A stretch of 64,000 nucleotides of DNA. It comes from an uncultured virus (IMG/VR IMGVR_UViG_3300024255_000007) (lineage: Duplodnaviria; Heunggongvirae; Uroviricota; Caudoviricetes). Position numbers and translations under genes: made by a program. The notes beneath the pieces are model-generated. The model saw nothing but the letters and a program-made list of their open reading frames with translations, was not told the origin of the DNA and did no database searches. The stretch lies in IMG/VR virus record IMGVR_UViG_3300024255_000007; one strand, written 5' to 3'. Shown piece by piece: positions 8,945 through 41,359 of this stretch (positions are counted from its first letter, which is position 1; each line of letters begins with the position of its first letter).

Positions 8945-9697
8945 ATGAATAATCATAATACTGTTGTAAGATCTCTTCAAGTTTTAACACACATTTTGCT
9001 CTTGTTCGGAGTATACTACACCTTCTCAACTTCTGCATGGGGATGGTTACTATGTAGTCTATTTGTATATTGGACTATCGGAGTACTAGGAATTAACATA
9101 GGATTCCATCGTTTAATTTCACATAGAAGTTTTGAGACTTATAAACCGATTGAATATTTTTTAGCACTTGTCGGAATCATCACTACTATAGGCTCACCGC
9201 TAGCATGGAGTGCTTTGCATAGACAACACCACGGACATACTGAAACCGAAAAAGATCCGCACTCCCCTTATCAACTAGGCTGGTTCAGAGCTTGGTTCGG
9301 GTTATGGGATGTAAAGCATATTAATTTAAGACTTGCTAAAGACTTAAGAAAAGAATCATTTTATAAGTATACTCACAAATATTACTTACATATTATCGTT
9401 GTATATAATATAATTTTAGCATTGATCAATCCTTTACTAATAGTATTTGTGTATGCTATACCTGCTGTACTGGTCTTACATAGCTCAAGTGCAATCATTG
9501 TTATTGCACATATGCACGGGTATAAAACACATGATCTAGGCCACGAAGAAGCAAGAAACAGCTGGATAGCTAGTTTGATTACACTAGGTGAAGGATGGCA
9601 TAACAACCATCATCATAATAGTAAAGCGTGGAATAATCAAGAACGCTGGTGGGAAATAGACCCTAATGCATGGATAATTAGAGCAATTAAAAAATGA
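8945..9697 (+). CDS. Membrane fatty acid desaturase (delta-9/DesC-like)
   Basis: His boxes HRLISH, HRQHH and GEGWHNNHH; WWEIDP; hydrophobic helices. Confidence 0.92.
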   Translation: MNNHNTVVRSLQVLTHILLLFGVYYTFSTSAWGWLLCSLFVYWTIGVLGINIGFHRLISHRSFETYKPIEYFLALVGIITTIGSPLAWSALHRQHHGHTETEKDPHSPYQLGWFRAWFGLWDVKHINLRLAKDLRKESFYKYTHKYYLHIIVVYNIILALINPLLIVFVYAIPAVLVLHSSSAIIVIAHMHGYKTHDLGHEEARNSWIASLITLGEGWHNNHHHNSKAWNNQERWWEIDPNAWIIRAIKK

Positions 9698-10440
9698 ACT
9701 ACGGAACTAAAGTACAATTATTAACATTAATTAATCATATAATGTTAGGCGCTGGCATATATTTTACCAATAACTGGAATTGGTTATGGCTAGGAGCTGT
9801 TATGTATCTGTTTGTAGGAATATTTGCTGCAAATATATCTATGCATAGGTACTTGTCACATAGAAGTTTTGAAACAGGTCCAATACGTGATAAATTTTTA
9901 AAGTATGTAAGTATACTTTCGTGTTTTGGAAGCCCGCTTAGTTGGGCAGCACTGCACAGACATCATCATAAAACTAGCGATACAGAAAAAGATATTCAGA
10001 ATCCGAAAGAAGTTGGAGCATTACGAAGCTGGAGTAGTTTGTACCCAGAAGCAAACATCAGCCCTAGATTAGTAAGCGATATGCTAAGAGATAAGGATGT
10101 TAAATTTATACACAACAACTATTTTAAAATAATTGTAGGTATTTACATAGTATTAGCATTAGTTGAGCCTATGATTTTAATATGGGGATTTATATTTCCA
10201 GCGGTTTTAAGTTTTCATGGCGCTGCTGCAATTGGAGTAATTCCTCACTATAGTTGGGCGGGATATAAAGTAGTTGACTCAAATGACGACAGCGTTAACA
10301 GTCCGTTAGCATGTTTATTAAGTTTAGGCGAAGGGTGGCACAACTATCATCATTACAAATCTTCTGATCATAGACATGGTCACAAATGGTGGGAATTAGA
10401 TCCTAGTGCCTGGTTAATTGAAAGGATATTTATAAAATGA
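9694..10440 (+). CDS. Membrane fatty acid desaturase, second paralog
   Basis: His boxes HRYLSH, HRHHH and GEGWHNYHH; WWELDP. Confidence 0.92.
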   Translation: MNYGTKVQLLTLINHIMLGAGIYFTNNWNWLWLGAVMYLFVGIFAANISMHRYLSHRSFETGPIRDKFLKYVSILSCFGSPLSWAALHRHHHKTSDTEKDIQNPKEVGALRSWSSLYPEANISPRLVSDMLRDKDVKFIHNNYFKIIVGIYIVLALVEPMILIWGFIFPAVLSFHGAAAIGVIPHYSWAGYKVVDSNDDSVNSPLACLLSLGEGWHNYHHYKSSDHRHGHKWWELDPSAWLIERIFIK

Positions 10441-10994
10441 CACCAGATGATTACTATATGAACTTTGCATATGTCAGTGAAAAATGGTTGTTTGAATATA
10501 TGACTAAGAATTATGCAGATTCAGACAATAAAGAATGGCTAGAGCAAATTGAAGACGAACACAAGCATACTTTAATGTGTGAAGGTGCGTTACGTAAACA
10601 GAACGTAGACTATTACAAAGATACAAGTAAAAGCATAGAACATGCAATATACGGAGAGCTGGGTAATTTTTATCCTAGCAACGACGAAGAATTTAGTGCA
10701 TTGAGTTGGATCGTAGAAAAACGTGCATTATTCTTGTATCGATATTATATGCGCAATGGCAATAACGAACTTTATAAAAAAATTACACAAGGCATTATTG
10801 ACGATGAAATAAAACATGTTGGGTTTCATAACGAAGAAATTACGCCATCGCACGAACGTATACGAGATATTGACAAAGCTATATTCACTGCATTTAACGA
10901 AACATACGGTCGTAAAGGTATGTTCGGCCAAGAGTTCTGGGAAGATCTTTTTACAGGCAAATTAAAGGAAAAGGTAAATGTCAAACTACCTTGA
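10437..10994 (+). CDS. Ferritin-like di-iron carboxylate protein
   Basis: E..(D)ExxH..E..(D)ExxH pattern: VSE, EDEHKH, IVE, DDEIKH. Confidence 0.75.
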   Translation: MTPDDYYMNFAYVSEKWLFEYMTKNYADSDNKEWLEQIEDEHKHTLMCEGALRKQNVDYYKDTSKSIEHAIYGELGNFYPSNDEEFSALSWIVEKRALFLYRYYMRNGNNELYKKITQGIIDDEIKHVGFHNEEITPSHERIRDIDKAIFTAFNETYGRKGMFGQEFWEDLFTGKLKEKVNVKLP

Positions 10995-11742
10995 TTATGT
11001 AAGTAATACAAGTTGGGTAGATATAACACCAATGTTTACTAAATGTCCTGTAGATCAAATTATGCAGGAAATATATTCTGTTGAAAGTATGTTTTTAGAA
11101 GAACGTGATCCTGAACAATATAAAGAAATGCAAGAAAAAGGTGCTGTTGGAATAGGCGAACACTTTGACAATCAGAAAAGTTGGGAAGCCGTAACTTTGT
11201 TTAGCAGCACAGGAGATTATAAAGATATTCTTACACAGGGGATACTTCCTAATCAAGATCTTAAAACATACATGGAAAGTTTTAGAAACTTACGTAATCA
11301 TAAATGGACTCAATTAGCAGAATTAATGCCAAATACTGTTTCATGGATCAAACAAGAAATAGGACAGTATATGCAGTTTAGTTATATTAAAATTGCTAAA
11401 CTAGGTCCAGACGGTGACGTTCCTGTACATACAGATGTGCCTCACGAAGACTTCGATTTTTTAAATACACAAAATACATATAACATGCTTAACAGTTTTT
11501 TAGTAGAACTAAACTTTCCCAAAGGTGTTACAGCATGGCATGATGGTGTTGAATTACCATATCAGCAAGGATCTGTAATATTTTGCAATCAAAGTAAGTC
11601 ACACGGTACTACTAATAAAGGCACTAAAACTAGATACAATCTTAGAATACAAGGATTACATAATAAAAGATTTAGAGAAGTTCTATTGAAGTCTGCTAAA
11701 GACTTTACTATGTATCCAAACTCTAGTAAACAGTTTTTATGA
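10978..11742 (+). CDS. Fe(II)/2OG oxygenase, aspartyl/asparaginyl beta-hydroxylase-like
   Basis: IAKLGPDGDVPVHTD (HxD), HGTTN, RYNL. Confidence 0.8.
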   Translation: MSNYLDYVSNTSWVDITPMFTKCPVDQIMQEIYSVESMFLEERDPEQYKEMQEKGAVGIGEHFDNQKSWEAVTLFSSTGDYKDILTQGILPNQDLKTYMESFRNLRNHKWTQLAELMPNTVSWIKQEIGQYMQFSYIKIAKLGPDGDVPVHTDVPHEDFDFLNTQNTYNMLNSFLVELNFPKGVTAWHDGVELPYQQGSVIFCNQSKSHGTTNKGTKTRYNLRIQGLHNKRFREVLLKSAKDFTMYPNSSKQFL

Positions 11743-12305
11743 TCAAGTACAACTTTAAAAATGTCACTATAGATCAATATTATCAAATTAAAGATGACGT
11801 TGAATTTTTAATGTCACAAATGCAAGACGATAAGTTATCAGCAAATTATACATATGATAATTTTTTTAAAGACGATCCGTTGTTTATAAGTATTATTTAC
11901 AAATACAATCAACCATTCGAAGTAAGCACTGTAATAAAAAGAGATATGTTTAATGGCGGTTGTCGAGTATTAAACAGATTAATGGTAAGCCCTTTATTGC
12001 GAGAAAAGCATACAGCAGTAGGTATTCCTGAGACTACATTAACAATGTTAAAGAGTCAGATTGAATTTGCTAAAGAGCACTTCAACTTTGCATTTATAAG
12101 TCGACAGTTTAATACTTATAGATTCTGTAAACGCTTTGCACAAGATGCTAATAACTTTTTAGATACTAAATGGTTATACGAAAAAGATCGTTTTTTAGTA
12201 TGTAATGATAAGAACCCGAACAGCAGTTGTTGGCAAAATATAGCATGGACTAACTTTAAAGGCCTTGATACTTTTCCTTTACAAGCTCAGTCATCTTTCC
12301 ACTAA
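11739..12305 (+). CDS. Possible GNAT-fold acyltransferase
   Basis: RVLNRLMVSPLLR...QIEFAKE...AFISR resembles GNAT motif A and the following strand; weak. Confidence 0.5.
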   Translation: MIKYNFKNVTIDQYYQIKDDVEFLMSQMQDDKLSANYTYDNFFKDDPLFISIIYKYNQPFEVSTVIKRDMFNGGCRVLNRLMVSPLLREKHTAVGIPETTLTMLKSQIEFAKEHFNFAFISRQFNTYRFCKRFAQDANNFLDTKWLYEKDRFLVCNDKNPNSSCWQNIAWTNFKGLDTFPLQAQSSFH

Positions 12306-13092
12306 GACATTCGGATTCGCTCATAAAGATTAAATCAGTAGGTGTATCAGTACATTGTAGTTGTAGATCTCTATAATTATCCCACAAATAATCATTAGGA
12401 TACTTCTTCATCAACATAGTAGCAAGTGCCATATTACCAATAGGCAAGTATGCTACATCATTTAATAATCCTTTATCTATTACATATTCTTTAGAATACC
12501 ATAGGCCTAGTCTATTAAGGGCTAATCCAAAATTTTTAGAAAAACTAAAAAATATATTAGTTACACTTTTAGGTATTTTAAATTCAACAGGCTTGCTAGC
12601 ACCATAATATGCACAATCTAACCAGCATTCAATATCTTCTTGATGACACTTTTCCAATAGTTGATGTTGTAGTTCATGCACTTTGCCATCTCTACAGAAC
12701 GGTACACTAGTTACAAACACGCAGGCGTCTGTTAGATCTTCAACAGTTTTAACCCAAACAATTTCAATACCGTACTTTTTTGCAATAAAAGGATACCATC
12801 TGTATTCGTTTTCAACCATTGCAATTTTTTTATTTGTATGAGATAATGCTATTAAACACTGTGTTATAGCTTCTGTACTGCCGTTTACAGCATACTTTCC
12901 AAAGTTTGGTAGTTTGATGCCGACCCAAGTTTCGAATGTGCTGTAGAAGCTGTCTATTGCTTTAAATCGTGTTTTTATATCCCAATCTTGATCAAAATAG
13001 AAGTACTCTCCCATAGGAAAATTCATAATATCATTATGTATTTCTGGAGGTCTAAAAGGTACAATCACATCTTTAATATTTCTTATACGCAT
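12256..13092 (-). CDS. PLP-dependent fold-type-I aminotransferase-like enzyme (short)
   Basis: NGSTEAI, WLDCAYY (DxAY) and FSFSKNFGL..NRLG (Schiff-base Lys motif). Confidence 0.85.
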   Translation of the reverse strand: MRIRNIKDVIVPFRPPEIHNDIMNFPMGEYFYFDQDWDIKTRFKAIDSFYSTFETWVGIKLPNFGKYAVNGSTEAITQCLIALSHTNKKIAMVENEYRWYPFIAKKYGIEIVWVKTVEDLTDACVFVTSVPFCRDGKVHELQHQLLEKCHQEDIECWLDCAYYGASKPVEFKIPKSVTNIFFSFSKNFGLALNRLGLWYSKEYVIDKGLLNDVAYLPIGNMALATMLMKKYPNDYLWDNYRDLQLQCTDTPTDLIFMSESECLSGKMTELVKEKYQGL

Positions 13093-13649
13093 TACTGCTC
13101 CTTTAATAGGTTATCACACAAATAATCAAAACTATAACTATCGTCCCAGTGAAAACTTAAAACTATCCTAGATCCAGAATTTTCATTAATAACTTGGTGC
13201 CATTCTGTGGCTCTAAACAATCCGCCGCAGGTTGTACTAGGATACCATCGTTCACTAACTTCATAGTTTCCTTCTTCAGAATCCCAAAACTTAACATAAC
13301 TTTTGTCCCATTCGCCGTATACCGGAAAGTTTAATGCTCCAACTCTTGATTCAATATCTACATGTATAGGACCAGTTCCTGCGTCACTTTTAATAAATGC
13401 TGCATATTTAGGTGTAATAGCTAACTTATCTGTAATAGGTTTAAAACATTCAAAACGAGGGTCATTGCTGCCACAATAATGCATTTGTATGCCTCCTGGA
13501 CCAATATGAAACCATCCCTTGTCAGCTTTCATTATATCATCAACTTGCGGTTCGTTTGTATTAAACGGATTAGGTAAATTATCTAAAAGATATTGTTGGC
13601 CTAATTCAGGTGTCCAATTTAATTCTGGAAATTCCTTAAAATAAATCAT
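13092..13649 (-). CDS. Fe(II)/2OG oxygenase-like (DSBH) protein
   Basis: PIHVD, ALNFPV, WHQVIN, RIVLS; likely start MIYFKEF at 13649. Confidence 0.65.
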   Translation of the reverse strand: MIYFKEFPELNWTPELGQQYLLDNLPNPFNTNEPQVDDIMKADKGWFHIGPGGIQMHYCGSNDPRFECFKPITDKLAITPKYAAFIKSDAGTGPIHVDIESRVGALNFPVYGEWDKSYVKFWDSEEGNYEVSERWYPSTTCGGLFRATEWHQVINENSGSRIVLSFHWDDSYSFDYLCDNLLKEQ

Positions 13650-14355
13650 TAGTTTCTTTCCAATCACTTTCCATTATCATCCCAGTAAGTGTTACACGCA
13701 TGTTCTCGCCTGCATCAGAATCAACTCTAGTTATTCCGTGTACAACTCTTTTATTAATTAGTATTAATCTGTTTGGCTTAGGGCTAACAAACATTCCGAG
13801 ACCGTAATCTATAATAGGTTTATATTTGTCAGCTTGCTGAAACATTTCCATAGGACTGTTAGTGTTTGTATAACAGTCGTGATGCACAGTACCTTCTTCT
13901 AAAGGAAGAACTTGCTGATAGTCTACACTTCCAAGGGGGCATATAAGGAGTGTGCTATCCCAATTTATTTGCCAGTGTCTGTGTAAATAATAAGTGTAAG
14001 TTGTAAATCCTAAATCGTTGTGCCACGGGTTTTTACTGTTGACCGGATATGCATGGCAGCGCATCGCAATTTCTATATAGTCTTTAGCAAAAGGTTTTGC
14101 TTCGGGGCATTTATTAAGAAATTCTGTAAAGTGTTTAAACCACAGATCACTGTTGTCATTAAAAGGACCTTCAGTGAGCCAACGCTTATTATTTTTATAG
14201 TTTGCGCCGTCAGTGTAATGCCAAAATTTATCATCTGCACCTGATTGACTCCATTTGTCAACTTGTACTTGATTCCAAATTTTATCCCAAATGTCTTGAG
14301 GTAAGAAATCATCTATTACTAGTGCTTCTGGTGTGTTTATTACAATATTATACAT
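13636..14355 (-). CDS. Fe(II)/2OG oxygenase (prolyl-hydroxylase-like)
   Basis: VIDDFLP, WHND, YYLH..W..NW, PKPNRLI, HGITRV, RVTL. Confidence 0.85.
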   Translation of the reverse strand: MYNIVINTPEALVIDDFLPQDIWDKIWNQVQVDKWSQSGADDKFWHYTDGANYKNNKRWLTEGPFNDNSDLWFKHFTEFLNKCPEAKPFAKDYIEIAMRCHAYPVNSKNPWHNDLGFTTYTYYLHRHWQINWDSTLLICPLGSVDYQQVLPLEEGTVHHDCYTNTNSPMEMFQQADKYKPIIDYGLGMFVSPKPNRLILINKRVVHGITRVDSDAGENMRVTLTGMIMESDWKETNDLF

Positions 14356-15370
14356 AAGACTGTCGTTCGCCTTCTCTACTTAAATCTAGTGTTACGCAAT
14401 GTAATCCGCTATCCCAAAAGTACTTATGTCGAAAATCAAAAGGTATCATATCAACACCGTGTTTTTTAAGTTTACGTTCTACTTCAGGATCATGACCATT
14501 AGTTATTACAGTATTAGCATCTATGCTTACTACATTAATATCGAACACAGTCTCGTCTACATAACCGATCCAATGATCTAACCAACTTGTGACTTTATCT
14601 TTGTAAAAGTGCTGGATTTTAATATCATTAAAATAATCAGGTAGCGGCTTGCGTTCTAGTTTAATATAGTCCCAACTTTTTAATTCTTCTGGTATTGCAC
14701 TAGGATCCCAACAGAATAGCAGTCCGGGTTTGATTAGTGCAATTTTTCCGTCTGCATGTCCTGTTCTAGGTATTTCTGCCCATTTAACATCATAGCCTAT
14801 ATTACGTTTTATCCAGTCTAATCCTGCATATGTTCCTCTTCCGTGCTGCTCCGGTGCATAAGGCTGCGTGTGTAACAACATGTCGCCGCACTTAATAATG
14901 TTTGCTGCATGCCATAGTATTTGGCCTTCTAGTTGTTCGTACTCCTTGTAGTCGCTTTGTAGTAGCGGCTTAGGCATACTTATATAGTTGCGTCCTTCTT
15001 TGAATTTTTTAAGCATAATGTCTAAGAAGTAATCGCTTTCTGTATATCTATTACAGTCTCCACCGATAGTACCTAGTATTGTATTTCCGTACACAACATG
15101 AAAATCTCTAGGACATATTGCAGGATAAGGATACTTTGAATTCCAAGTTCTAGTGTTTTCTTTTAATAAGGGCAGTTGTTTAGGCCTATGTACTTTAACA
15201 TTATAACTTTTAAATATGTCAGAGAGTTTAGAAAAATCTTGTTCTGTTTCCTCTAAAATTTTAGCCATTCCATCTATAAACTTGTTATCGTCAAATTGCT
15301 GTAACGATTCTAAATCATATGTAGAACCTACTACAACTTCTGTTAACTTATCCCATTCAGTAAATATCAT
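14348..15370 (-). CDS. Amidinotransferase (glycine/inosamine-phosphate amidinotransferase family)
   Basis: TEWDKLTEVVVG, CPRD, GHADG and SGLHCVTLDLSR (catalytic Cys). Confidence 0.88.
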   Translation of the reverse strand: MIFTEWDKLTEVVVGSTYDLESLQQFDDNKFIDGMAKILEETEQDFSKLSDIFKSYNVKVHRPKQLPLLKENTRTWNSKYPYPAICPRDFHVVYGNTILGTIGGDCNRYTESDYFLDIMLKKFKEGRNYISMPKPLLQSDYKEYEQLEGQILWHAANIIKCGDMLLHTQPYAPEQHGRGTYAGLDWIKRNIGYDVKWAEIPRTGHADGKIALIKPGLLFCWDPSAIPEELKSWDYIKLERKPLPDYFNDIKIQHFYKDKVTSWLDHWIGYVDETVFDINVVSIDANTVITNGHDPEVERKLKKHGVDMIPFDFRHKYFWDSGLHCVTLDLSREGERQSYV

Positions 15371-16542
15371 TTATATGTATTCCACCAATTATTATATGCT
15401 TCTATATCTTTATCATATTGTACCAAATCAGAGTTTGATAAAGAAACCATACCTAGACTACTTAACATACTAGTCGAAGGATTAACTTTTTTTGGTAAAT
15501 TAAAAAGTATATTGTGATCTATTTTTCCAATAAAGCTAGGAATCTCTTCTAACATTGGCCAGTTAATACTTTCAATATACTTAGAACTTTCTACATTAAC
15601 CCAGAATCTTTCATATGGCTGATTATAATCGTAGTAAGAAATTCTGTTTTTAAATTTATCAGTATTTAAATATAAATTACTAACATGTGTAGATAGTTTT
15701 ATGCCTGAAGATAGATAAACTCCGTGATCACTTATGTGTCCGTGTTTTCTAAAATTTATTTCAACTAGATGTATTTTGTGTTTCTCATCTACTATTACTT
15801 GTGCGCAAGTAACACCGAAATTCCAGTTTAACGCATCTAAACATAAACATACATACTCGTACAATTCGTCAATGAAATATCTATTCTCTGTATAATTCAT
15901 TACCGATTCTTTATATTGCCATAACGATCCATGTTTTTTACTATACTCTGTAGCAAGTAATAAATGATGTTCGCCGGATGCTGTTGCAATATCTATTGTA
16001 TATTCCGGACCATCAATATATTCTTGTGCTATATAATCGTTAGAATTTAAGGATGGTAAACTAGATAGACTATTCACATAGTATACATTTTCGCTTCCGC
16101 CACGACTTTCTTTAGGTTTTACAACTACAGGATATTCTTCTATATTATTAAGACTGTACTGTCTTGTAGTAACAATTCCTTTTTCTCTAAGTAAATTTAA
16201 ATACAATTCTTTATCTTTGATTATATCAATTGTTTCTAGAGAATTTGATTTTTTGGGTACATAACGATTTTGAAGTTTTAATGCAAGATCAACGCTATCA
16301 TCTCCACTGGGAATACAGGCAATTATTTTATGCGTTTGCGCATATCGATCTATTACTTCTTTAGTATAAACTTCTTCGTAGTGAAAACTCGTATCATCCT
16401 TTCTGTACTTGTTATGTATTGTATTTTTGTCCTCTTCAGACGACCAAAGTATTAATATCTTGTATGTATAATTGTTAAAGACTTCTCTAACTACATCATA
16501 ATGGTCTCTTGCAGGATTTACTATAACTACTAATTCGTTCAT
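15367..16542 (-). CDS. ATP-grasp ligase (L-amino-acid ligase-like)
   Basis: DKELY, YPVVVKP..SRGGSENV, QEYIDGPEYTID, VEINFR. Confidence 0.88.
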   Translation of the reverse strand: MNELVVIVNPARDHYDVVREVFNNYTYKILILWSSEEDKNTIHNKYRKDDTSFHYEEVYTKEVIDRYAQTHKIIACIPSGDDSVDLALKLQNRYVPKKSNSLETIDIIKDKELYLNLLREKGIVTTRQYSLNNIEEYPVVVKPKESRGGSENVYYVNSLSSLPSLNSNDYIAQEYIDGPEYTIDIATASGEHHLLLATEYSKKHGSLWQYKESVMNYTENRYFIDELYEYVCLCLDALNWNFGVTCAQVIVDEKHKIHLVEINFRKHGHISDHGVYLSSGIKLSTHVSNLYLNTDKFKNRISYYDYNQPYERFWVNVESSKYIESINWPMLEEIPSFIGKIDHNILFNLPKKVNPSTSMLSSLGMVSLSNSDLVQYDKDIEAYNNWWNTYK

Positions 16543-18202: not shown

Positions 18203-18635
18203 TTTCGGTTATCTCTTTCAAATAGTGCTCAGGCCAATTTTGATAATAATCTGTAGTCTGCAAGTATGCTCTTTTTTTGTTAATATCGCCTTTGTCTTGT
18301 ATAAAAATACAGTTTGTAAAGTTTTTAACAAAATGACCGCTATTAGTAGTACTTTTAAAGTACAGAAGATTGTCATTTTTTGCTGTTAATTCTTTTATTA
18401 CTTGATCAACATTTAATAAATTATCATTTAACCAAGCTACTCCTAGTTTATACTGTTTGTTGTCAAACTTTGCACAAGCATTAAATACGTCTTGAGTTGC
18501 ATCGATAAATTGTATTTCATTTTTCAACCTGGCTGTTTTAGCAAACGGACATACTGGATATCCGTTATCTTGCACAGGCTCTATATATTCTATTGCCCAG
18601 GTTAGAAAGTTATGTTTAAATTCATCGTATGTCAT
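18195..18635 (-). CDS. Hypothetical protein with CPFA motif (DUF1415-like)
   Basis: W...IE....G.PVCPFAK.A and C-terminal R..L..TDYY..W. Confidence 0.6.
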   Translation of the reverse strand: MTYDEFKHNFLTWAIEYIEPVQDNGYPVCPFAKTARLKNEIQFIDATQDVFNACAKFDNKQYKLGVAWLNDNLLNVDQVIKELTAKNDNLLYFKSTTNSGHFVKNFTNCIFIQDKGDINKKRAYLQTTDYYQNWPEHYLKEITENA

Positions 18636-18653: not shown

Positions 18654-18667
18654 GGTGTAGAAGTGTG

Positions 18668-29377: not shown

Positions 29378-29382
29378 TTTGT

Positions 29383-32695: not shown

Positions 32696-33917
32696 CGCCG
32701 CCGCCATTTAAGTAACTATTTTGTTTGTCGCCTAGTTCGCCAAAGTCAAGACCATTCCATTCTACACCACAGCACTGCCCGCATTTAGCAGGACGCATAC
32801 TTGTATTGCCGCTTTCATTATCCCATGTGTCGGGTATAAGTTTACGGAATAAGTCTTTATCAAGTATATCAAACAAATTATGGTCGTGCATATTAAATGC
32901 ACGTTGTCCGCCATCAATATCAACAATTTTTAAATAGTTATCGTCTCTTGACCTTTGTTTAGGATTATGAAACGGTTCACTTCCTAAAAAACAACATGGA
33001 GATACAAAACCGTCTGCTGCTATATAAATTTCGTTGTTAGGATGATGCGGTCTTGCGCCTGCACAACTTCTGCATGCTATTGACAAATCATTTAATTTAA
33101 TAGTATGCCATTCACCGTTTGCATATCTATTATCTCCATTATCTCTGCCTTTCATATTTTTAAAATCTTCTAGTGTAATACTTTGATTTTCTTGATTTTT
33201 AAAAAGTGTAGCATCTTCAAAGTTATGCTTAAATGCAACTTCTGATGGCTGTTTTAGATCATATAAGTATTTGCCTTTTTCATATACTTTATATGCTCCT
33301 TGGTCATTGTCGTATCTTTGCCATCTAGTAGTTCTCTTAATATTAAAGTTTTTAAATCCCATTTCAATAGCTAGATTACGTGCTTCTTCAACTTGATGTT
33401 CGTTGTATTCAAATACAATATAGTCCCAATGTGCTACTCCGCCAGCATCGATAAACGCTTTAGCATTTTCGATTATCTTTTTAAAGTTTGTTTTACGTCT
33501 ATATAGATGATTTGTATCTTCTAAACCGTCAATACTAAATGTGCAGTAATTGCCAGGATTTTGTTTTTCTGTCATTACTGCGCCTAAACGTGCCCACCAA
33601 TCAGGTGTTCTTAGACTTCCGTTAGTATTACACGCTAACCCTACTCCGGGATTTAGTTCTCTTACATATTCGTAAATATCAACAAATTGTCTACATGCAC
33701 ACGGATCACCAAAATTACCACATGCTAAAATTTTCTTTAAATTACGTTGAATAAACTCTACAGGCCATGCTGCTTTAAATTGGTCTAAAGTCCATTCAGT
33801 ATTTGAAAGTGTTTCTACTTCAAATCCGTCTTTTGTGTATCGTGGACACATTGGACACATACTGTTACATCTATCAGTAGGCTCCCAATGAACTTGAAAC
33901 TTTTCACCTCTAAACAT
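32682..33917 (-). CDS. Radical SAM protein with C-terminal SPASM/twitch-like domain (paralog of 20872)
   Basis: CNSMCPMC, GNFGD, SIDGLEDTNHLYRR, YIAADGFVSPCC, CGQCC. Confidence 0.92.
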   Translation of the reverse strand: MFRGEKFQVHWEPTDRCNSMCPMCPRYTKDGFEVETLSNTEWTLDQFKAAWPVEFIQRNLKKILACGNFGDPCACRQFVDIYEYVRELNPGVGLACNTNGSLRTPDWWARLGAVMTEKQNPGNYCTFSIDGLEDTNHLYRRKTNFKKIIENAKAFIDAGGVAHWDYIVFEYNEHQVEEARNLAIEMGFKNFNIKRTTRWQRYDNDQGAYKVYEKGKYLYDLKQPSEVAFKHNFEDATLFKNQENQSITLEDFKNMKGRDNGDNRYANGEWHTIKLNDLSIACRSCAGARPHHPNNEIYIAADGFVSPCCFLGSEPFHNPKQRSRDDNYLKIVDIDGGQRAFNMHDHNLFDILDKDLFRKLIPDTWDNESGNTSMRPAKCGQCCGVEWNGLDFGELGDKQNSYLNGGGDGTK

Positions 33918-35109
33918 TGATGTACTCCTTTGCTAAATTGTAATATTCTGGAAATGTTTCTTGGAAACTTTCATTACGGACTTTATCTCTTAACCGTATT
34001 TCTTTCCAAAAATTGTTCCAGTCATGTTCACTGTATTCTGTATTACGCAATAGATTACAAATCATATCACGCTGCCTAGTCCAGTCATGTACATCATATT
34101 TGCTTTCTGTTGCTTCTAATCTTTTTATTAACTTTTGTTTTAATTCTGTAGGAATAATTCTTACTCCGTGATGATCATGTACTGTGTTTACATACATGCG
34201 TAGTCCTTTGGCTGCATAATGTTCATACGTTTCAAAAAAATCAAATACATTAAATGCACTTACACTTAAACATGCGCCAATATACCATGTTGTCTTTGCA
34301 TTATCTTTAGCCACTAAAAATTTATCTATATTTTCTTCACACAATTCAAATGGACTTCCGTGTCGTAAATAATCAAACTTTTTACCTATACCATCTGAAC
34401 TTATTTGTATATCAACTGTTTTAAATTTGTCCAATAAATCTATATATTTGGTCGGATAAATGGTACCATTTGTGTTATAATGTAAATATTGATTCTTACT
34501 AAAGCCTTGTGTAACACTGTGTTCTATCATTTTCCAATGTGCAGGAATGTAAAAAGGCTCTCCGCCAGCAAAATCAAAACGTTCTGCATGTTCTAGTAAC
34601 TCCTTTATATCTTCCCAAACAAAGTCGTTAGTTTGTTCAAAACTTTCTTTAGCAATTAACCATTTAGGTTGTTTCATGTAACCTTTTATGTCCTTAGGAC
34701 TGTGTATTTCTGCTTCCTCACGTAGCCACGGAGTACTATGTCTTGGCGAACAAATGCGACACTTTAGGTTACATAAGTTGCCCATGCTTAGATCTAGCAC
34801 AACTGGCAAACTTTCAAACTCAAATGTTCTATCTTTATATTCTCTGTTGTCTCTTATGCGCTTGCTTTCTTTGCCAGCATCTTCTTCCTGCCAACATGCT
34901 GTGCAATCTGATATCCTTTCGCCGCTGTCTAGTGCGTCTGCAAAATCTTTACGATCTTTACTATACCAAAAATCTTTAATGCTTGCTTTGTCTAATGAAG
35001 TTTCGCCTGTATCAGTTGTTAAGAATTTATCACTCATACAACAAGGTCGTACACCTCCAGTAGGGTGTATACTTAAATTCATATAAGCATTAACGCACCC
35101 GTTAGCCAT
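33910..35109 (-). CDS. N-terminal twitch-domain radical SAM protein
   Basis: C...GGVRPCC..CTACW.EE.AG.ES.R; CNLKCRIC; GGEP; YNTNGT. Confidence 0.92.
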   Translation of the reverse strand: MANGCVNAYMNLSIHPTGGVRPCCMSDKFLTTDTGETSLDKASIKDFWYSKDRKDFADALDSGERISDCTACWQEEDAGKESKRIRDNREYKDRTFEFESLPVVLDLSMGNLCNLKCRICSPRHSTPWLREEAEIHSPKDIKGYMKQPKWLIAKESFEQTNDFVWEDIKELLEHAERFDFAGGEPFYIPAHWKMIEHSVTQGFSKNQYLHYNTNGTIYPTKYIDLLDKFKTVDIQISSDGIGKKFDYLRHGSPFELCEENIDKFLVAKDNAKTTWYIGACLSVSAFNVFDFFETYEHYAAKGLRMYVNTVHDHHGVRIIPTELKQKLIKRLEATESKYDVHDWTRQRDMICNLLRNTEYSEHDWNNFWKEIRLRDKVRNESFQETFPEYYNLAKEYINV

Positions 35110-36454
35110 AATTATCATGCACCTCTTTACAATAATTAAAGAAATCTGTATATTCAGGAAATACTTCTAACAAATTTAGTCCAACACGTTTATCATTTTC
35201 TGTAAAGAAACTATAAAAGTCTCTGCGACCTTGTTGTATTTTAAGAGGATCAACAGGATTTTCTTTCATGTAGTTTCTAACACGCTTGAACTTTTCATAC
35301 TCATCCGGATTAAATTTATCCATATTTGTATCAATAAAACTAAGTGTTTCGTCCATGTATAATAAGAATGATTCTGGTAAAATATTAATCATCCAATGCG
35401 GCGGCTCTTTTAAATACGGTGTATCAAAACCAATAGCATGGTGTCCAAACTCTTCTCTCCACTCAATTACTTTATGTAACAGACTTTTGAAGTTTGTAAC
35501 ACACAAAACATTAAATGTACACATTAGACTTACTTGAAATCCCCTGCGCAATGCTTCTTTTAGATTACGTTCCCAGTGTACTAGATTCATTCCAGTACGC
35601 ATGTATTCTGCTTGCGGTCCCCATGTATCTATACTTGTAAACAAGCTAAACTTTTTAATTTTTTTATTTTCTAGTAAAGATTCTACTCTATCATAAAATT
35701 TGTCTATCTTGTTTGTTGAAACTCCTAGATTACTATTGAGACTAATTCTTAAATTTGGAGCAGGCTCTTTTTCTAATAGATCTAAAAACTGCATAGATCC
35801 CGGGTTCATTAAAGGTTCTCCGCCAGTAATACGTAGTGTGTGTAGATCATTGCGTAAACTAGGCCACCATTTCCAAAATGCTTCGATATATGGATTGTCG
35901 TCTTTAGGACCGTAGTATGTTCCGTTTTCTAAAAAGTCTATACCGTATTGATTGTAGGTTAAATCGTAGTTGCCGTGTTTTTTAATTTCGTCCATCCATA
36001 ATGTACTTGCTTGTGGACAGCAATAGCCACAACGATAGTTACACCCGTTACCAAAACTAACTTCCAAATAGCGAGGATTTATATCTTTATCCCAAGGCAT
36101 AGTTGCAAGTGTTTCAATCACAGGCTCAGCATAAGAACTAGCACTATGAAAATGCCGATCACTTAAATGCTCGCCAGGTAGATCTTCAATATTCCAGCAG
36201 TAATAACATTCATCAGGACGACCACCTTCTAGCATAGTCTTACGTTGCTGCTTTTTCCATTTTGTATTATGTAAAGCACTTGGATTATCTTGTATTTCTT
36301 GTAAAGGTATATGTTGAGGTCGTGGATGATAACAACTGTGATTATCGCCTGTATGAAGATAAAGTGTTTCGTGCAACCATTTTTGTGTGCAAAACCCTTT
36401 ACCTATCTTGTTTAGTCTTTCTTTTACTGCATCTACTCGTTTATCTCTGCTCAT
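35102..36454 (-). CDS. Radical SAM protein with N-terminal Cys/His twitch-like domain
   Basis: FC..KW...HSCYHP..ECYYCW; CNYRCGYC; ITGGEP. Confidence 0.92.
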   Translation of the reverse strand: MSRDKRVDAVKERLNKIGKGFCTQKWLHETLYLHTGDNHSCYHPRPQHIPLQEIQDNPSALHNTKWKKQQRKTMLEGGRPDECYYCWNIEDLPGEHLSDRHFHSASSYAEPVIETLATMPWDKDINPRYLEVSFGNGCNYRCGYCCPQASTLWMDEIKKHGNYDLTYNQYGIDFLENGTYYGPKDDNPYIEAFWKWWPSLRNDLHTLRITGGEPLMNPGSMQFLDLLEKEPAPNLRISLNSNLGVSTNKIDKFYDRVESLLENKKIKKFSLFTSIDTWGPQAEYMRTGMNLVHWERNLKEALRRGFQVSLMCTFNVLCVTNFKSLLHKVIEWREEFGHHAIGFDTPYLKEPPHWMINILPESFLLYMDETLSFIDTNMDKFNPDEYEKFKRVRNYMKENPVDPLKIQQGRRDFYSFFTENDKRVGLNLLEVFPEYTDFFNYCKEVHDNYG

Positions 36455-37853
36455 ATTTTTCTTTACACTCTCTATAAAAATGTTCTAAACTTGGAAAGGT
36501 TTGTAATAAATCTGTATTACGTCTACGATCGTGTTCTTTAAAAAACAAGTAAAAGTTTATTTTTGCTTGTTCCTCTTCAAATGTATTTAACGATGCACAT
36601 GCCCAATCGTATAGTCTTCTGACTTTGTCTACTTCAAAGTCCTTAAATCCTTTGTATCTATTTTGTGTAGTCTCTGGATTACTTTCCATAAACTGTATAC
36701 TATCTAATAACGGCTCTAACATATCACTAGTTGCTAGTTGCATACTTTGCCATTTAGGATCGTGCAACATAGGAGTATCAAACCATATTAACTGTCTGTC
36801 TGTATTAAACTCTTTGCGCAACTCTAAAATATTATGTATATATTCTTTATAGCCCGGTAAACTTAATAAATTTGCTGTAATTATAAATGTTAAACTATGT
36901 CCGGTACCTTCTGCAAGATACTGCCGAATATTTTTATACATTATATCAAAATCTAAACCGTGTCGTATATACTCTGCTTGTGTCCCCCAGCTATCTAAGC
37001 TACAAAATAGCATAAAGTGATCGATAGCAGGTGATACTTCTTTTAAATCATCAATAAACTTTTGCCATTGTCCCTTAGGAGGACAGCAATTGCTTGTAAT
37101 ACTTAATTGTAAATCTGATTTAGGATTTTGTTTTACATAATCAAACACTTTAAAAGTGTTTTTATCCATCAAAGGCTCGCCGCCTGTCATACGAAATGTT
37201 TTTAATGTAGGATATACTTCTGGAAAATACTCCCAAAAGGCTTGTATATACGGACTATCAGGGGCATTGTTAATACGCATTCCTTCTACCCACAACGGGT
37301 CATTATGATTACCGTGTGCTAATTTGTATGCCCCATGTTTTTTGACTTCTTTGTGCCACTCTGTGCTTAGGTGCGGACTACAATAACTGCATTTAAGATT
37401 GCATGCTTGGTTAAAATTTACTTCTAAATATCTAGGTTTAGGATTTTCTTCAATTTGTGCTGCTTGGATAAGCTCAGGCTCGTATACATCTTTACTACGA
37501 TATGCTCTATCACTTATACTGCCTTGGTCTTCTAATGCCCAGCAAAACTCGCACTCTTTAGGACGTTCTCCTTTAAGCATTTTAGCACGTTGTTCTTTTT
37601 TATATTGTGTATTATGCAATGCATCAGGCGATACAGCAAGTTCTTCAAGGGGAATATGATGACTAGGTGGGTGATAACAACTATGTGTTCTACCAGTTGG
37701 TAAATGTAAACTCACACTATACCATTTAGCCAAACAGAAGCTAGGACTAACTTGATTTAATCCTTCTAAAAGATCTTTACTACTTTCAAAGTATACGCTT
37801 TGATATTTGCCTTTAAGTAGTTTAACTTCATCACCTTTTTGATCTTTGCTCAT
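36441..37853 (-). CDS. Radical SAM protein with N-terminal Cys/His twitch-like domain (paralog of 35102)
   Basis: FCLAKW...HSCYHP..ECEFCW; CNLKCSYC; MTGGEP. Confidence 0.92.
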   Translation of the reverse strand: MSKDQKGDEVKLLKGKYQSVYFESSKDLLEGLNQVSPSFCLAKWYSVSLHLPTGRTHSCYHPPSHHIPLEELAVSPDALHNTQYKKEQRAKMLKGERPKECEFCWALEDQGSISDRAYRSKDVYEPELIQAAQIEENPKPRYLEVNFNQACNLKCSYCSPHLSTEWHKEVKKHGAYKLAHGNHNDPLWVEGMRINNAPDSPYIQAFWEYFPEVYPTLKTFRMTGGEPLMDKNTFKVFDYVKQNPKSDLQLSITSNCCPPKGQWQKFIDDLKEVSPAIDHFMLFCSLDSWGTQAEYIRHGLDFDIMYKNIRQYLAEGTGHSLTFIITANLLSLPGYKEYIHNILELRKEFNTDRQLIWFDTPMLHDPKWQSMQLATSDMLEPLLDSIQFMESNPETTQNRYKGFKDFEVDKVRRLYDWACASLNTFEEEQAKINFYLFFKEHDRRRNTDLLQTFPSLEHFYRECKEKYEQR

Positions 37854-39368: not shown

Positions 39369-40199
39369 CTAAATTCCAATTATTTTTTCATATGTGTTAA
39401 TTACATCACTTGTAATAAAATCATCTTCTGTATAATGAAATATATTACTTTGTTTGTAATTGCCAACATATAGTTGTGCATCATCTGTTAGATAAGTGCC
39501 AACTTCTTTTTGCCAACTATCTTTTAGTCCTTGCCAATTTTGTATGTTTGCCTTCATATGAGTAAACATAGGTGCATAGTGACTATTATTAGTAATAACA
39601 GATTCACAATCTAATATTGCTGTAGCAAGACTACTACTAATATCCATACTTGCAAAATTTTGTAAATTCATATTATGCAGATTAAAAAAGTCGCTATAAT
39701 TATTAACAATAATATCTAGCAATCCATAAAATTCGTATGCAAATTTAGACTTTTTAAAATAATGCAGTCCGTAATACACATTAGGAAGTTTAAATTTATT
39801 TAATTTTTTTCTATAAAACTGATTATTAACTATCTCGTTGCGATATGTTTTTACGTTATTACATATCCAAAAGTCATACTTTTCAAAATGTGTTTGCCAG
39901 TTAGAAAGATCATTTAGTATTAGCATGTCAGTATCAATAACAACAGTGTCGCTAAAAGGACATGCATGAATAATCTTAAATCTGTTATGTATTTTCCATT
40001 CATATTTGTGAGCAGAGTCTCCCCATGGAATTTCTACTACTGCATCAAATAGTTCTTTGTACTTACTTGGAACTGCGTCATTAGTAATTAAACAGATCTT
40101 ACTTGTAGGGTTTGTATGTCTTATGCTCATTGCAGAAACACATGCTTGTTGTACGTAATCTACGTCCGTACTATTCTGAGCTAACATTGTAAAATTCAT
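39369..40199 (-). CDS. GT-A glycosyltransferase-like protein (GT8-like)
   Basis: YVQQA...AMSI, LITND, PF..TVVIDTDML (DxD), YFKKS, FTHMK, FHY. Confidence 0.75.
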   Translation of the reverse strand: MNFTMLAQNSTDVDYVQQACVSAMSIRHTNPTSKICLITNDAVPSKYKELFDAVVEIPWGDSAHKYEWKIHNRFKIIHACPFSDTVVIDTDMLILNDLSNWQTHFEKYDFWICNNVKTYRNEIVNNQFYRKKLNKFKLPNVYYGLHYFKKSKFAYEFYGLLDIIVNNYSDFFNLHNMNLQNFASMDISSSLATAILDCESVITNNSHYAPMFTHMKANIQNWQGLKDSWQKEVGTYLTDDAQLYVGNYKQSNIFHYTEDDFITSDVINTYEKIIGI

Positions 40200-41019
40200 T
40201 TAACAATTCTCCCAAACTAAACTTATTCATTACATGCACATTTATATTTTTTGTTTTAGATAGGAAATATTCTCCAGGATGTGTTTTCTTTTCAAGCAAG
40301 AAAGTAAGATTATTATCATCAATTTTATGGCAGTGATCTCTGTCGGTAATATAATATTTTTTACCCGGCATTTGTTTTGCAAATGACCCTTGTTGAAATC
40401 CGTTCATTATATGTATAGCAATACTAAAAGCAAAATCGTTTCTATATGTAATATAACTTAATCTATAAACAGATTTATAATGATGCCAATTTTCTTGTAT
40501 ATGTTGGAGAAGATCAAAAAAGATTTTGTTACGTTCTGTTTTTGTAAAATATACACACGTAGCCCAATAAAAATCTATACTTGTATCACTAATTTTACTA
40601 AACTCAGTTGTTTTAGAAAACTGTGTATTAATATTAGTAGCGTCTTTATAAATTAGAAAATCATCGTTTACTTGAAAACAATTTTTAAAACTATCATTAG
40701 ATATAATATAATCTGTATCTAGTAATAATGTTTTATCATAAGGCGAAAGTTCGTACGCATAAACTCTTGTATCATTTTTAAACGCTGCGGATTTATTATA
40801 AAACGCTCCGCAGTGAAACTTTCTTTTGTTAGAACTTGAATTAGGTTTATATATTACCTTATCAAAATTTGTAAAAGTATTAGCGTATTCAACATCACTT
40901 GTAACAATTGATGTAGGTATATCTAAATGTTTTTTTATTCTAGCGGCTAGAAAATCTGCCTGCATAATATAATCAAATAATCCATTATTGTATGCAAATA
41001 ATAAACATCCATTAGTCAT
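40171..41019 (-). CDS. GT-A glycosyltransferase-like protein (paralog of 39369)
   Basis: G.LLFA.NN..DY, SPYDKTLLLDTDY (DxD), WAT..YF.K, RNDFAFSIA, HVMNK. Confidence 0.75.
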   Translation of the reverse strand: MTNGCLLFAYNNGLFDYIMQADFLAARIKKHLDIPTSIVTSDVEYANTFTNFDKVIYKPNSSSNKRKFHCGAFYNKSAAFKNDTRVYAYELSPYDKTLLLDTDYIISNDSFKNCFQVNDDFLIYKDATNINTQFSKTTEFSKISDTSIDFYWATCVYFTKTERNKIFFDLLQHIQENWHHYKSVYRLSYITYRNDFAFSIAIHIMNGFQQGSFAKQMPGKKYYITDRDHCHKIDDNNLTFLLEKKTHPGEYFLSKTKNINVHVMNKFSLGELLNEFYNVSSE

Positions 41020-41359
41020 TAATAATATCCGTTATAGACCGTTTTACTTTTATATTATTATATTCATTTAGGTATACGTTTGTAGCTGTTGCATAACAAT
41101 CAACTAACTCATCTGTAAACTGTTTAAGATTTTCAATATTACACGGCAAATCGTTACAATCTATTAGTATTGCAGTTTCTTGTTTAAGTTGTAGTAACGA
41201 TGTACAAAAAGAAATTAATGCAGGAGTTGCTAGAAATTTTGATCCATTATGATACGTGTCAATACTAGCATAGTATTGCTCTTTTAGATTGTTTTTTTGT
41301 GCTTGATGCGTTAGCATTACATTACTAAAATCTAATGCTTTTGATAGTTTTTCGTCCAC
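41012..41359 (-). CDS. Hypothetical protein (115 aa, GTG start) heading the GT/rSAM operon
   Basis: AGGAG RBS; consensus promoter immediately upstream. Confidence 0.8.
   Translation of the reverse strand: MDEKLSKALDFSNVMLTHQAQKNNLKEQYYASIDTYHNGSKFLATPALISFCTSLLQLKQETAILIDCNDLPCNIENLKQFTDELVDCYATATNVYLNEYNNIKVKRSITDIIND

Follow-up and report, generated by a model that had tools for sequence, protein, structure and literature searches.

The chlorovirus PBCV-1 encodes soluble, multi-domain GT-A transferases, A064R and its partners, which are cytoplasmic and act on virion protein. A64R matches the core protein P308 of the phage island described here at the level of structure alone (Foldseek). 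PBCV-1 differs as a eukaryotic virus without the radical SAM, amidinotransferase and Fe/2OG tailoring set. Mycobacteriophage-encoded glycosyltransferases reportedly decorate capsid and tail proteins. These are said to be small gene sets without radical SAM tailoring, likened to the island by description alone.

Comparable modules have been described, with no function assigned, in pelagimyophages (2020, available part of PMC7029224), in Campylobacter phages CP220/CPt10 (2010, PMC2853527) and in cyanophage S-SCSM2R (2025, available part of PMC12801897). The kind of module is already known, and 'undescribed', the wording of the first-pass annotation, is too strong. The host recognition cluster of pelagimyophages and cyanomyophages is a hypervariable island amid tail-fibre genes, with GT8 genes and exchangeable radical SAM cassettes (available part of PMC7029224). 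It belongs to T4-like phages of ~150 kb, whereas the phage analysed here is of the jumbo type, and the islands are likened by description alone. The CP220/CPt10 module has five radical SAM (rSAM) genes, an amidinotransferase and two GT-A-fold genes and adjoins baseplate genes (Timms et al. 2010, PMC2853527). It was called 'interchangeable', being exchanged as a block between sister phages (PMC2853527). The CP220 amidinotransferase is 26% identical to our w14348. One CP220 protein matches the mixed N_Twi profile A6 (E 1e-9) and none matches core profile A8; the CP220 GT-A genes, in contrast to the shared features, were not detected by our core profiles.

The cultured Ralstonia phage RsoM2USA (MG752970; Front Microbiol 2021, PMC8504454) carries an eight-gene core (ORF354-347) in identical order behind fibre genes, beside a giant structural protein, sheath and fibre-like genes. 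Its core proteins share 31–47% identity with those of the window. Among 50,697 phage records, RsoM2USA alone was matched by P308, P276 or the core rSAM. It differs in being limited to the core (~6.4 kb): there is a single rSAM, tailoring cassettes are missing, and the core has no sigma-70-consensus site in front of it. The eight genes are all annotated as hypothetical and, in the available part of PMC8504454, are absent from the 10 identified virion bands.

The window, the whole analysed stretch of 64,000 nucleotides, comes from a giant marine phage that has not been cultured. It clusters with jumbo phages of the Atu_ph07, Phosso, PA5oct and Rak2 types and represents a lytic-type jumbo myovirus relative; no lysogeny genes were seen in the window. 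Between positions 8945 and 41359, 38 intact ORFs of 101–742 aa form the enzyme island, where about 37 nearly gap-free genes had been counted at first. The coding fraction is 0.997. Neighbouring genes overlap at 33 of 37 junctions, nine times by 4 nt. Five genes (8945-12305) and a single one (29383-30021) lie on the plus strand, the other 32 on the minus strand. Pseudogene-like decay, considered in the first-pass annotation, was not seen in any island gene. With dN/dS values of 0.03–0.25 where synonymous differences are informative, the island genes are under purifying selection. By hydropathy, all island proteins are soluble except two desaturase-like ones. Fibre/baseplate-type genes, fibre-like by PHROGs, form the right flank (41414..51397, minus strand) and include two paralogue sets with common N-termini. 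A fibre-like gene had also been proposed on the left; the gene at 7859-8884 has a single weak match, to a PHROG of unknown function. Fibre genes had been described as rich in Ser, Thr and Asn. Their Ser plus Thr fraction is indeed raised (0.16–0.26 vs 0.07–0.15 in island enzymes); a composition count gave no enrichment of Asn. Marine RNA-library contigs hold pieces of island and fibre genes at at least 99% identity, which is weak evidence with DNA carry-over possible.

The core genes are all on the minus strand. The small P115 (41012..41359) comes first; it is conserved over its full length (alignment A5), shares 32% identity with RsoM2USA ORF354 and had no match in Pfam or PHROGs. P282 (40171..41019; 36% to ORF353) and P276 (39369..40199; 31% to ORF352) are GT8-like GT-A proteins. 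P282 has a conserved D-x-D (consensus LDTDYII, alignment A2), the P276 profile (A3) matches glycogenin-1 (E 6e-5, residues 4–105, DxD included), and the two alignments match each other with an hhalign probability of 99.7%. Pfam GT8 and GT2 models matched no core protein. The following 'slot' is always filled, by a highly variable protein (alignment A4): an ORF of 173–278 aa is present in 54/54 distinct loci with a mean pairwise identity of 0.26 and covaries most with P282 (rho 0.64). The slot protein of the window, P201 (38763..39368), has no named family and in the Atlas only viral hypothetical clusters. P308 (37850..38776), the most conserved core gene, encodes a GT-A domain at the N-terminus, in which D64 and D66 are invariant, and a helical domain at the C-terminus. 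Among its best matches in Foldseek are the peptide-glycosylating ThuS/SunS and A64R, the capsid glycosyltransferase of PBCV-1 (2p6w, 2p72, 2p73; E 8e-4 to 2e-3), and bacterial P308 homologues contain Sel1 protein-binding repeats. The multi-domain GT-A-type protein P742 (27080..29308; 45% to ORF348) has related repeated segments in its N-terminal part; residues 516–738 form a conserved core unit of ~226 aa, paralogous to the P308 N-terminus. This agrees with the four GT-A proteins of the first-pass annotation. P228 (26413..27099; 32% to ORF347) is Rossmann/methyltransferase-like by motif reading alone (A7), and its profile had no match in the PDB. A methyltransferase-like enzyme had been proposed; P228 (w26413) offers the motif resemblance and no tool match.

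The proposed number of nine radical SAM enzymes was correct: 9/9 have CX3CX2C and match PF04055 at E<=3e-4, six of them above Pfam's cut-off. Five are members of the catalogued family NF033640 (N_Twi_rSAM), above its curated cut-off (177–318 bits vs 170); in these, a Cys-rich domain at the N-terminus precedes CX3CX2C. The core rSAM (36441..37853; 318 bits) is 36% identical to ORF349 and has a 34% paralogue beside it (35102..36454; 310 bits). A variable cassette enzyme (33910..35118; 290 bits) has a SPASM-type match at residues 8–76, and a further member lies at 31502..32707 (281 bits). The fifth (25268-26416) is part of a four-gene rSAM cassette (23411..26416), together with an rSAM with N-terminal Cys-rich domain (24312-25283) and a minimal rSAM (23713-24324), whose Cys-rich domain is split off as w23411 (23411-23716, 101 aa). 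This is the suspected free SPASM-like domain; seven relatives of ~309 aa carry its homologue as a C-terminal Cys-rich domain, fused to the rSAM core. A second family comprises the enzyme at 32682..33917 (PF04055), which is related to CP220 rSAMs, and its paralogue at 20872-22017 (29% identity). All nine genes and w23411 are on the minus strand. Fusion to both a WbsX-type glycosyltransferase domain and a methyltransferase is seen in two of ten long N_Twi homologues. No NF033640 member above cut-off occurs in 14 control genomes, and a literature search on the N-terminal twitch domain found no tested member of the family. The AF2 model of the core rSAM has a pLDDT of 92.7. Its structural scores tie (SkfB 13.5, BlsE 13.3, DesII 13.0, SuiB 12.6), and the model does not tell relatives that act on sugars from those that act on peptides.

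The other tailoring genes form cassettes. Two minus-strand ORFs (30009-30905, 30881-31501) have no match in Pfam, NCBIfam, PHROG or PDB sequences. The single opposite-strand gene (29383..30021, plus) is weakly SDR/Rossmann-like (NF006035, E 2.7e-4). A duplicated cassette (19234..23481, minus) encodes a ~295-aa protein without named family and a QueC-like protein (22603+21969 and 19976+19234), with the rSAM at 20872-22017 between the copies. Both QueC-like ATPases of the first-pass annotation are PP-loop proteins, mutually 30% identical; the QueC matches are weak (Pfam E 3.9e-5 and 0.032; PHROG 1550), far under family cut-offs. The guanidino/amino-acid cassette (12256..19300, minus) has nine genes, given by start coordinate: an Asp/Asn-hydroxylase-like 2OG enzyme (18668), a 2OG-FeII_Oxy_5 (17573), two amidinotransferases (16539, 14348), an ATP-grasp protein with family match (15367), a weak 2OG (13636), a PLP-like protein (12256) and two proteins without named family (18195, 13092). 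It shares 97–100% amino-acid identity with two related loci, L097/L098, whose flanks reach only 49–78%. Amidinotransferase w14348 matches the inosamine-phosphate amidinotransferase StrB1 (1bwd, E 2.6e-20) over its full length, with the C-terminal His-Cys pair aligned, and is also close to HsvA and SxtG; w16539 is its 51% paralogue, and both predicted amidinotransferases stand. In contrast to the StrB1 setting, the island has no cyclitol synthase. The convergent block (8945..12305, plus) comprises two membrane FA_desaturase-like proteins (8945, 9694), a ferritin-like di-iron protein (10437), an Asp/Asn-hydroxylase-like 2OG enzyme (10978) and a protein without named family (11739). A desaturase homologue is also located within the island of a 335-kb relative (C57). 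The ATP-grasp and desaturase assignments were upheld by the tools. From six proposed Fe/2OG oxygenases, three are firm (w10978, w17573, w18668), w13636 is weak and two were not recovered. The PLP-, SDR-like and di-iron proteins (w12256, w29383, w10437) have weak matches alone, and no tool supported the GNAT-like protein.

The order fibre, P115, P282, P276, slot, P308, rSAM was found in all 45 related loci of at least 18 kb. Tailoring genes between and after the core are exchanged among relatives. The pattern proposed at the outset, in which a glycosyltransferase core stays constant beside tail genes while the tailoring genes vary, is present; RsoM2USA shares the core and its place beside structural genes. 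NAD sugar epimerase/dehydratases occupy the island position in 13 loci of relatives, where B12-rSAMs and a FkbM methyltransferase also occur. The island of C57 includes a UDP-glucose/GDP-mannose dehydrogenase, a DegT aminotransferase and a hexapeptide acetyltransferase. As relatives' islands hold such classical nucleotide-sugar enzymes, the prediction of a glycan-building island is well supported. Spearman coefficients are 0.25–0.39 between adjacent fibre and core genes and 0.50–0.71 among P115, P282, P276 and slot, calculated from pairs that are not independent.

A sigma-70 promoter with perfect consensus (TTGACA-17-TATAAT; 41382..41410, minus) lies 23 nt before the P115 start and fills part of the 54-nt gap after the fibre-like gene 41414-42457. 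For P115 homologues, 51 distinct upstream regions were compared: the site is complete (12/12) in nine, 11/12 in 21 and 10/12 in three. With a sigma-70-consensus promoter of its own, the core is not simply coupled to the fibre genes. A second perfect consensus with TG extension (29315..29343, minus) has its -10 ending 6 nt before the P742 ATG. This spacing recurs before P742-type genes in relatives and suggests a possibly leaderless mRNA. Of 42 genes scanned behind sigma-70-consensus promoters in C57, seven are of DNA/RNA/nucleotide metabolism, one has a weak tail match and none is a head gene. Core expression may be early, because in C57 this class of promoter lies ahead of genes for replication and nucleotide metabolism rather than structural ones.

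Most likely, the island genes make an unusual sugar chain and modify it chemically. The predicted pathway is cytoplasmic and would first assemble, then tailor the glycan; its core is conserved, and its cassettes can be exchanged. The core, consisting of P115, the two GT8-like transferases, the slot protein, P308, one to two N_Twi rSAMs, the P742-type GT-A unit and P228, would be transcribed from a strong promoter of its own, of host type. With four to six soluble GT-A domains, the pathway may build a short chain of sugars on an acceptor that is itself soluble. The rSAM enzymes would edit sugars by C-H activation, and Fe/2OG and di-iron enzymes may oxidise them. The two amidinotransferases would add guanidino groups, amino or acyl groups may be attached or converted by ATP-grasp and PLP-like enzymes, and an ATP-dependent amidation could fall to the QueC-like PP-loop enzymes.

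The product could also be a free soluble glycoside, made in the infected cell and off the virion, aminoglycoside- or peptidyl-glycoside-like with guanidino groups, serving as antibiotic, anti-defence compound or signal. The closeness of the amidinotransferases to StrB1 of streptomycin, HsvA and SxtG, the ATP-grasp and PLP-like enzymes and the DegT-type aminotransferases of relatives are consistent with it, as are the promoter class shared with replication genes and the tie of the rSAM model with BlsE and DesII, whose substrates are free sugar nucleosides and NDP-sugars. The amidinotransferase/rSAM/AHBA_syn trio of S-SCSM2R was named 'antibiotic synthesis genes' (available part of PMC12801897). 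Such a product is nevertheless unlikely: the window was searched without finding a cyclitol synthase, a scaffold synthase, a resistance gene or an exporter; most small glycosides need fewer than four to six GT-A domains; and the place directly behind fibre genes is fixed in the 45 long loci and RsoM2USA. It is quite unlikely that the island alters the host's surface glycans (LPS, capsule, lipid) or the precursors of these in the cytoplasm, so as to exclude rival phages or aid release. Searches of Pfam, NCBIfam and PHROG type gave no match in the island to families of polyprenyl-phosphate transferases, flippases, polymerases or exporters; a lipid-carrier glycosyltransferase, ligase or transporter was not found either, the glycosyltransferases have no membrane segments, and the phage is of a lytic type. 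This reading draws on the membrane desaturase-like proteins, the LpxO-family (PF05118) hydroxylase-like genes, the host-type promoter class that may act early and the host O-chain modification favoured for the GT8 genes of the pelagimyophage cluster (Zaragoza-Solas et al., available part of PMC7029224).

Two readings concern other chemistry. SPASM/twitch-type rSAMs, ATP-grasp enzymes and hydroxylases of PF05118 are usual in peptide tailoring, and SkfB, SuiB and anSME are among the top structural neighbours of the rSAM model. A sugar-free, RiPP-style modification of protein or peptide by rSAM, ATP-grasp and Asp/Asn hydroxylase-type enzymes is still improbable, given the invariant four GT-A proteins and the nucleotide-sugar enzymes of relatives. 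Family searches of the window found no PKS/NRPS scaffold, precursor-like peptide or base transglycosylase, as first stated, and matched no RRE-type domain; P115 is conserved full length, and a conserved 74-aa ORF of 24 relatives is missing from the window. Most improbable is hypermodification of phage DNA by base glycosylation or deazapurine elaboration. The weak QueC-like and QueE-like matches and the promoter class of replication genes fit it, and CP220, with a partly homologous rSAM/amidinotransferase module, has DNA fully modified with 7-amido-7-deazaguanine (available part of bioRxiv 10.1101/2023.04.13.536721). Against it, thymidylate-synthase-like and TGT/DpdA-like genes were not found in the window and the QueC-like scores are low. 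In the MAG holding C57, PF00303 and PF01702 match only other contigs, although a divergent DpdA could escape, and PHROGs gave no QueC, QueE, FolE or DpdA around the QueD-like gene of C57.

For the sugar chain, the acceptor is most likely a virion protein, probably a neighbouring Ser/Thr-rich fibre. The likeness of P308 to ThuS/SunS and A64R and the Sel1 repeats of its bacterial homologues hint at a protein acceptor. The core's own promoter, its promoter class and the weak covariance with fibre genes count against the virion. The virion-glycan proposal of the first-pass annotation holds for the glycan-type transferase and tailoring island and is tentative for the acceptor. We favour the whole reading, cytoplasmic glycan assembly and tailoring with a virion protein as acceptor, tentatively, at slightly under an even chance. 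If the virion is the acceptor, cassette swapping would diversify the particle surface.

The island at 8945-41359 is real, intact and widely conserved in phages. It holds 38 ORFs, close to the about 37 near gap-free genes of the first-pass annotation, with 99.7% coding sequence and overlaps at 33 of 37 junctions, nine of them of 4 nt. All nine genes proposed as radical SAM (rSAM) enzymes encode a CX3CX2C motif and match PF04055. Five exceed the curated cut-off of 170 bits for the N_Twi_rSAM family NF033640 (177, 281, 290, 310 and 318 bits); the other four score below it. The N_Twi rSAMs share four invariant N-terminal cysteines ahead of CX3CX2C (33-sequence alignment). The free SPASM-like domain (ORF at 23411) turned out to be the split C-terminal Cys-rich domain of an approximately 309-aa enzyme, which is fused in seven relatives. 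Both suggested amidinotransferases were recovered, one by a StrB1 match and the other, the ORF at 16539, as a paralogue with 51% identity. Membership in the AGAT/StrB1 family is supported by a phmmer alignment with 1bwd (E 2.6e-20, residues 18-339) including the C-terminal HC pair. Family models also identified the expected ATP-grasp protein and two PP-loop proteins with weak QueC-like matches. Two fatty acid desaturase-like proteins are present as proposed, and no other island protein has hydrophobic segments. Other assignments held in part. Of the six proposed Fe/2OG oxygenases, three were firm and one weak; the PLP-like, SDR-like and di-iron proteins had weak matches only. GNAT-like and methyltransferase-like enzymes were supported by none of the searches. 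Eight island ORFs had no family match, and a PDB sequence search gave no match for the ORFs at 19976 and 30009. Island genes are under purifying selection, with dN/dS values of 0.03-0.25 where synonymous changes were informative.

The window has a G+C content of 31-40%, and no tRNA genes were found in it. The AAA ATPase (3841-4929) and a baseplate-side protein (50786-51397) have their nearest relatives in the jumbo myoviruses Phosso, Atu_ph07, PA5oct and Rak2/CBB-type phages (38-54% identity). Fibre-like genes lie to the right of the island (41414-50786). They form two paralogue sets with common N-termini and unlike C-termini: 41414 and 42474 share 37% identity over ~340 aa; 45303, 46829 and 48696 share 32-34% over ~260-340 aa. 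Beyond them, a giant ORF (51424-63999, minus strand; more than 4,170 aa) continues past the window end and has weak similarity to ORF361, a 2,541-aa virion protein of RsoM2USA, a cultured jumbo phage of Ralstonia. At the DNA level, megablast queries of 8 kb and 24 kb from the window had no match among 50,697 phage records. The nearest DNA record, the 32-kb IMG/VR fragment G001, shares 95% identity over 35103-48900 only and diverges beyond. Short contigs of marine RNA libraries (four libraries from four studies) match the island and fibre genes within 26000-45999, many with at least 99% identity; they may include DNA carry-over, yield no transcript start, strand or level, and are uninformative for uncovered bins.

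A core of the island, whose proteins are named by their length in amino acids, is shared by many phages. An IMG/VR scan with P308 detected 398 related stretches, from which 80 loci were retained; homologues of the core rSAM number more than 6,000. All 45 loci of at least 18 kb have fibre genes followed by P115, P282, P276, the slot position (P201 in the window), P308 and one or more N_Twi rSAMs. Most of them continue with a P742-type unit and P228, and then with more rSAMs. The complete core set including the slot ORF was present in 67 loci, 54 of them distinct. RsoM2USA encodes the same eight core genes in the same order (ORF354-347), every one annotated as hypothetical, beside a giant structural protein, sheath and fibre-like genes. 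It was the sole match among the 50,697 phage records for P308, P276 or core rSAM queries. In locus L091, homologues of the window genes 6905, 5030 and 3841 follow directly after the core, so the 32 kb of the window represent the same site in an expanded form. A strongly conserved ORF of ~74 aa lies directly after the P228 homologue in 24 loci (L015-L081, e.g., L025:13810-14034).

A scan of genome contigs with one core protein alignment revealed nine loci, all in MAGs. Seven lie among phage fibre genes, which makes them probable phage contigs that were placed in bacterial bins. The two clearly bacterial loci have P308-like genes only and lack the core. There, Sel1 repeats are fused to the P308-like GT-A proteins (L095:5721-11263 and L096:1394-5396), and a two-domain GT7C+GT8 protein and a caspase-Sel1 protein lie next to them. 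Phage fibre genes and the island also occur on two contigs, C57 (335 kb, loci L100-L116) and C77 (153 kb), of a bin with the label of a Neomarinimicrobiota MAG. With their 96% coding density and near-identical stretches in common, these are probable jumbo-phage contigs that ended up in a bacterial bin.

Several core proteins resemble glycosyltransferases. A P276 profile matched glycogenin (GT8) with an E value of 6e-5 over residues 4-105 only, which is the nucleotide-binding half including the DxD motif. P282 is a paralogue of P276 (hhalign probability 99.7%). Neither protein matched Pfam PF01501 at E<=1; given this and the partial glycogenin match, they are named GT8-like and not filed as GT8 members. 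P308 has a GT-A Rossmann-like fold with a conserved DxD; hhalign found no relation between P308 and P282. Searches of PDB sequences with P308, P282 and P228 profiles gave nothing meaningful. The last 226 residues of P742 are paralogous to the N-terminus of P308, and related segments recur in the N-terminal part of P742. For P115, P201 and P228, no family match was found, and an Atlas search with P201 returned viral hypothetical clusters only. The predicted complex of P282 and P201 scored 0.14 (mark 0.32). A role of P201 as a fibre-specific adaptor is not supported: it covaries with P282 (rho 0.64) and P276 (0.55) versus 0.36 with the fibre, the pairs not being independent. Of ten long homologues of an N_Twi rSAM, two have a WbsX-type glycosyltransferase domain and a methyltransferase as fusion partners; most others, about twice one unit in length, may be tandem pairs. 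An rSAM fold search singled out no substrate class, and BtrN was absent among the 50 matches listed.

The enzymes around the core vary. Loci L097 and L098 share window genes 10437-19300 at 97-100% amino acid identity, with near-zero synonymous change in several genes, whereas the flanking genes have only 49-78% identity. Between the window and G001, identity falls within 6 kb from 100% (P115 to P276) to 84-89% with dS above 1 (rSAMs). Judged by these sequence comparisons, cassettes move. The plus-strand block (8945-12305) travels with the guanidino/amino-acid cassette (12256-19300, minus strand), and a desaturase homologue is located inside the C57 island; the block was therefore counted in the island. 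A separate role of this block in lipid chemistry is possible.

The most likely function of the island is to build and radically tailor a sugar structure. The variable region of relatives encodes NAD-dependent sugar epimerases/dehydratases in two clusters (seven and six loci), B12-binding rSAMs, an FkbM methyltransferase, a nitroreductase and 2OG oxygenases. The C57 island (152.8-184.3 kb) codes for a UDP-glucose/GDP-mannose dehydrogenase, a DegT-type aminotransferase and a hexapeptide acetyltransferase, along with GNAT, ATP-grasp, TauD, PhyH and QueC-like proteins and the desaturase homologue. The window contains no polyprenyl-phosphate transferase, flippase, polymerase or transporter/exporter family of a lipid-carrier polysaccharide pathway, and hence the acceptor should be soluble.

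Transcription of the core appears to start from host-type promoters. Four perfect TTGACA-16/17-TATAAT sites occur in the window (0.23 in shuffled sequences), all of them intergenic. They are located just before the exonuclease gene 904 (846-874, plus strand), gene 5030 (4972-4999, plus strand), P742 (29315-29343, minus strand) and P115 (41382-41410, minus strand). The P742 start codon follows 6 nt past the end of the -10 element (TATAAT-TTAAAT-ATG; 29303-29348, minus strand), which suggests a leaderless mRNA; the same spacing was found upstream of P742-type genes in relatives. P115 homologues are preceded by a site with at least 11/12 matches in 30 of 51 distinct upstream regions. No sigma-70-consensus site precedes the RsoM2USA core. 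C57 has 66 sites of this class, 18 of them perfect. A gene starts within 150 nt downstream of 45 sites, and 42 of those genes were scanned. Seven belong to DNA, RNA or nucleotide metabolism (RNR, exonuclease, SbcD-like, SSB, helicases and DnaB-like); others encode the ATPase, a kinase, a QueD-like protein, S21 and sugar-nucleotide enzymes, and many are small ORFs without an assignment. There was one weak tail match and no head gene. The P115 promoter and this survey make the core a transcription unit of its own with the promoter class of replication genes. By analogy with T4-type biology, this class would be 'early'. The T4 late-promoter motif TATAAATA gave no signal in the window (4 occurrences versus 15.7 expected).

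The acceptor may well be a virion protein, at somewhat below an even chance. The location behind the fibres is invariant, fibre proteins are rich in Ser and Thr (S+T 0.16-0.26), the fold-space neighbours of P308 include protein glycosylators, and the truly bacterial P308 homologues bear Sel1 repeats. The promoter class of the core is neutral or speaks against a virion acceptor, as does the weak covariation of the adjacent fibre with every core gene (rho 0.25-0.39, pairs not independent). A free glycoside is rather unlikely as the product but a serious rival, given the StrB1-like amidinotransferases, the ATP-grasp protein and the aminotransferases. In its elaborated form, which we consider improbable, the island would be a phage natural-product pathway: early, host-type promoters would drive synthesis of a free, heavily edited glycoside with guanidino and amino-acid groups, similar to aminoglycosides or peptidyl glycosides. 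The N_Twi rSAMs would perform new C-H chemistry on sugars, and the product would act on host or competitors instead of decorating the virion. A host structure is a doubtful target too; host O-chain modification is the guess offered for the fibre-region island of pelagimyophages by Zaragoza-Solas et al. (2020; PMC7029224), who described GT8 genes in it together with radical SAM cassettes that can be swapped.

Protein modification without any sugar is very unlikely. A RiPP cluster would have a precursor peptide gene with a variable core and a peptide-recognition (RRE) domain; P115 is conserved over its whole length, no RRE or precursor family was matched in the window, and the 74-aa ORF of relatives is absent from it. 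DNA is disfavoured as the target, with a very small chance. The window encodes no thymidylate-synthase-like or DpdA/TGT-type enzyme, although a divergent DpdA could escape the models. Within the bin that holds the 335-kb relative, matches to PF00303 (ThyA-like) and PF01702 (TGT-like) fall on other contigs only. The lone QueD-like gene of C57 has no pathway partners nearby: QueC, QueE, FolE and DpdA were not seen. This gene lies behind a perfect promoter and close to a PHROG glycosyltransferase (L103:12027-13921; C57 72.0-73.9 kb).

Related modules have been described. Timms et al. (2010; PMC2853527) reported an interchangeable module of five rSAM genes and an amidinotransferase in the Campylobacter phages CP220 and CPt10, which differ in their modules. 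We found two GT-A-fold genes in the CP220 module as well, and the amidinotransferase and rSAMs that it encodes are distantly homologous to those in the window. For cyanophage S-SCSM2R, a 2025 paper (PMC12801897) terms a trio of amidinotransferase, rSAM and AHBA_syn 'antibiotic synthesis genes'. Literature searches found no paper joining radical SAM, jumbo phage and glycosyltransferase, and nothing on the N_Twi_rSAM family in work on the N-terminal twitch domain. The chemistry can be tested now, as the cultured RsoM2USA has the core and CP220 a partly homologous module. In this phage lineage, which is abundant in the sea, N_Twi-family rSAMs coupled to sugar transferases take up as much as a tenth of a jumbo genome. 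Decoration of fibres by the product would give phages a new means to vary or mask the surface that recognises the host, and a free glycoside would count as a secondary metabolite made by a phage.
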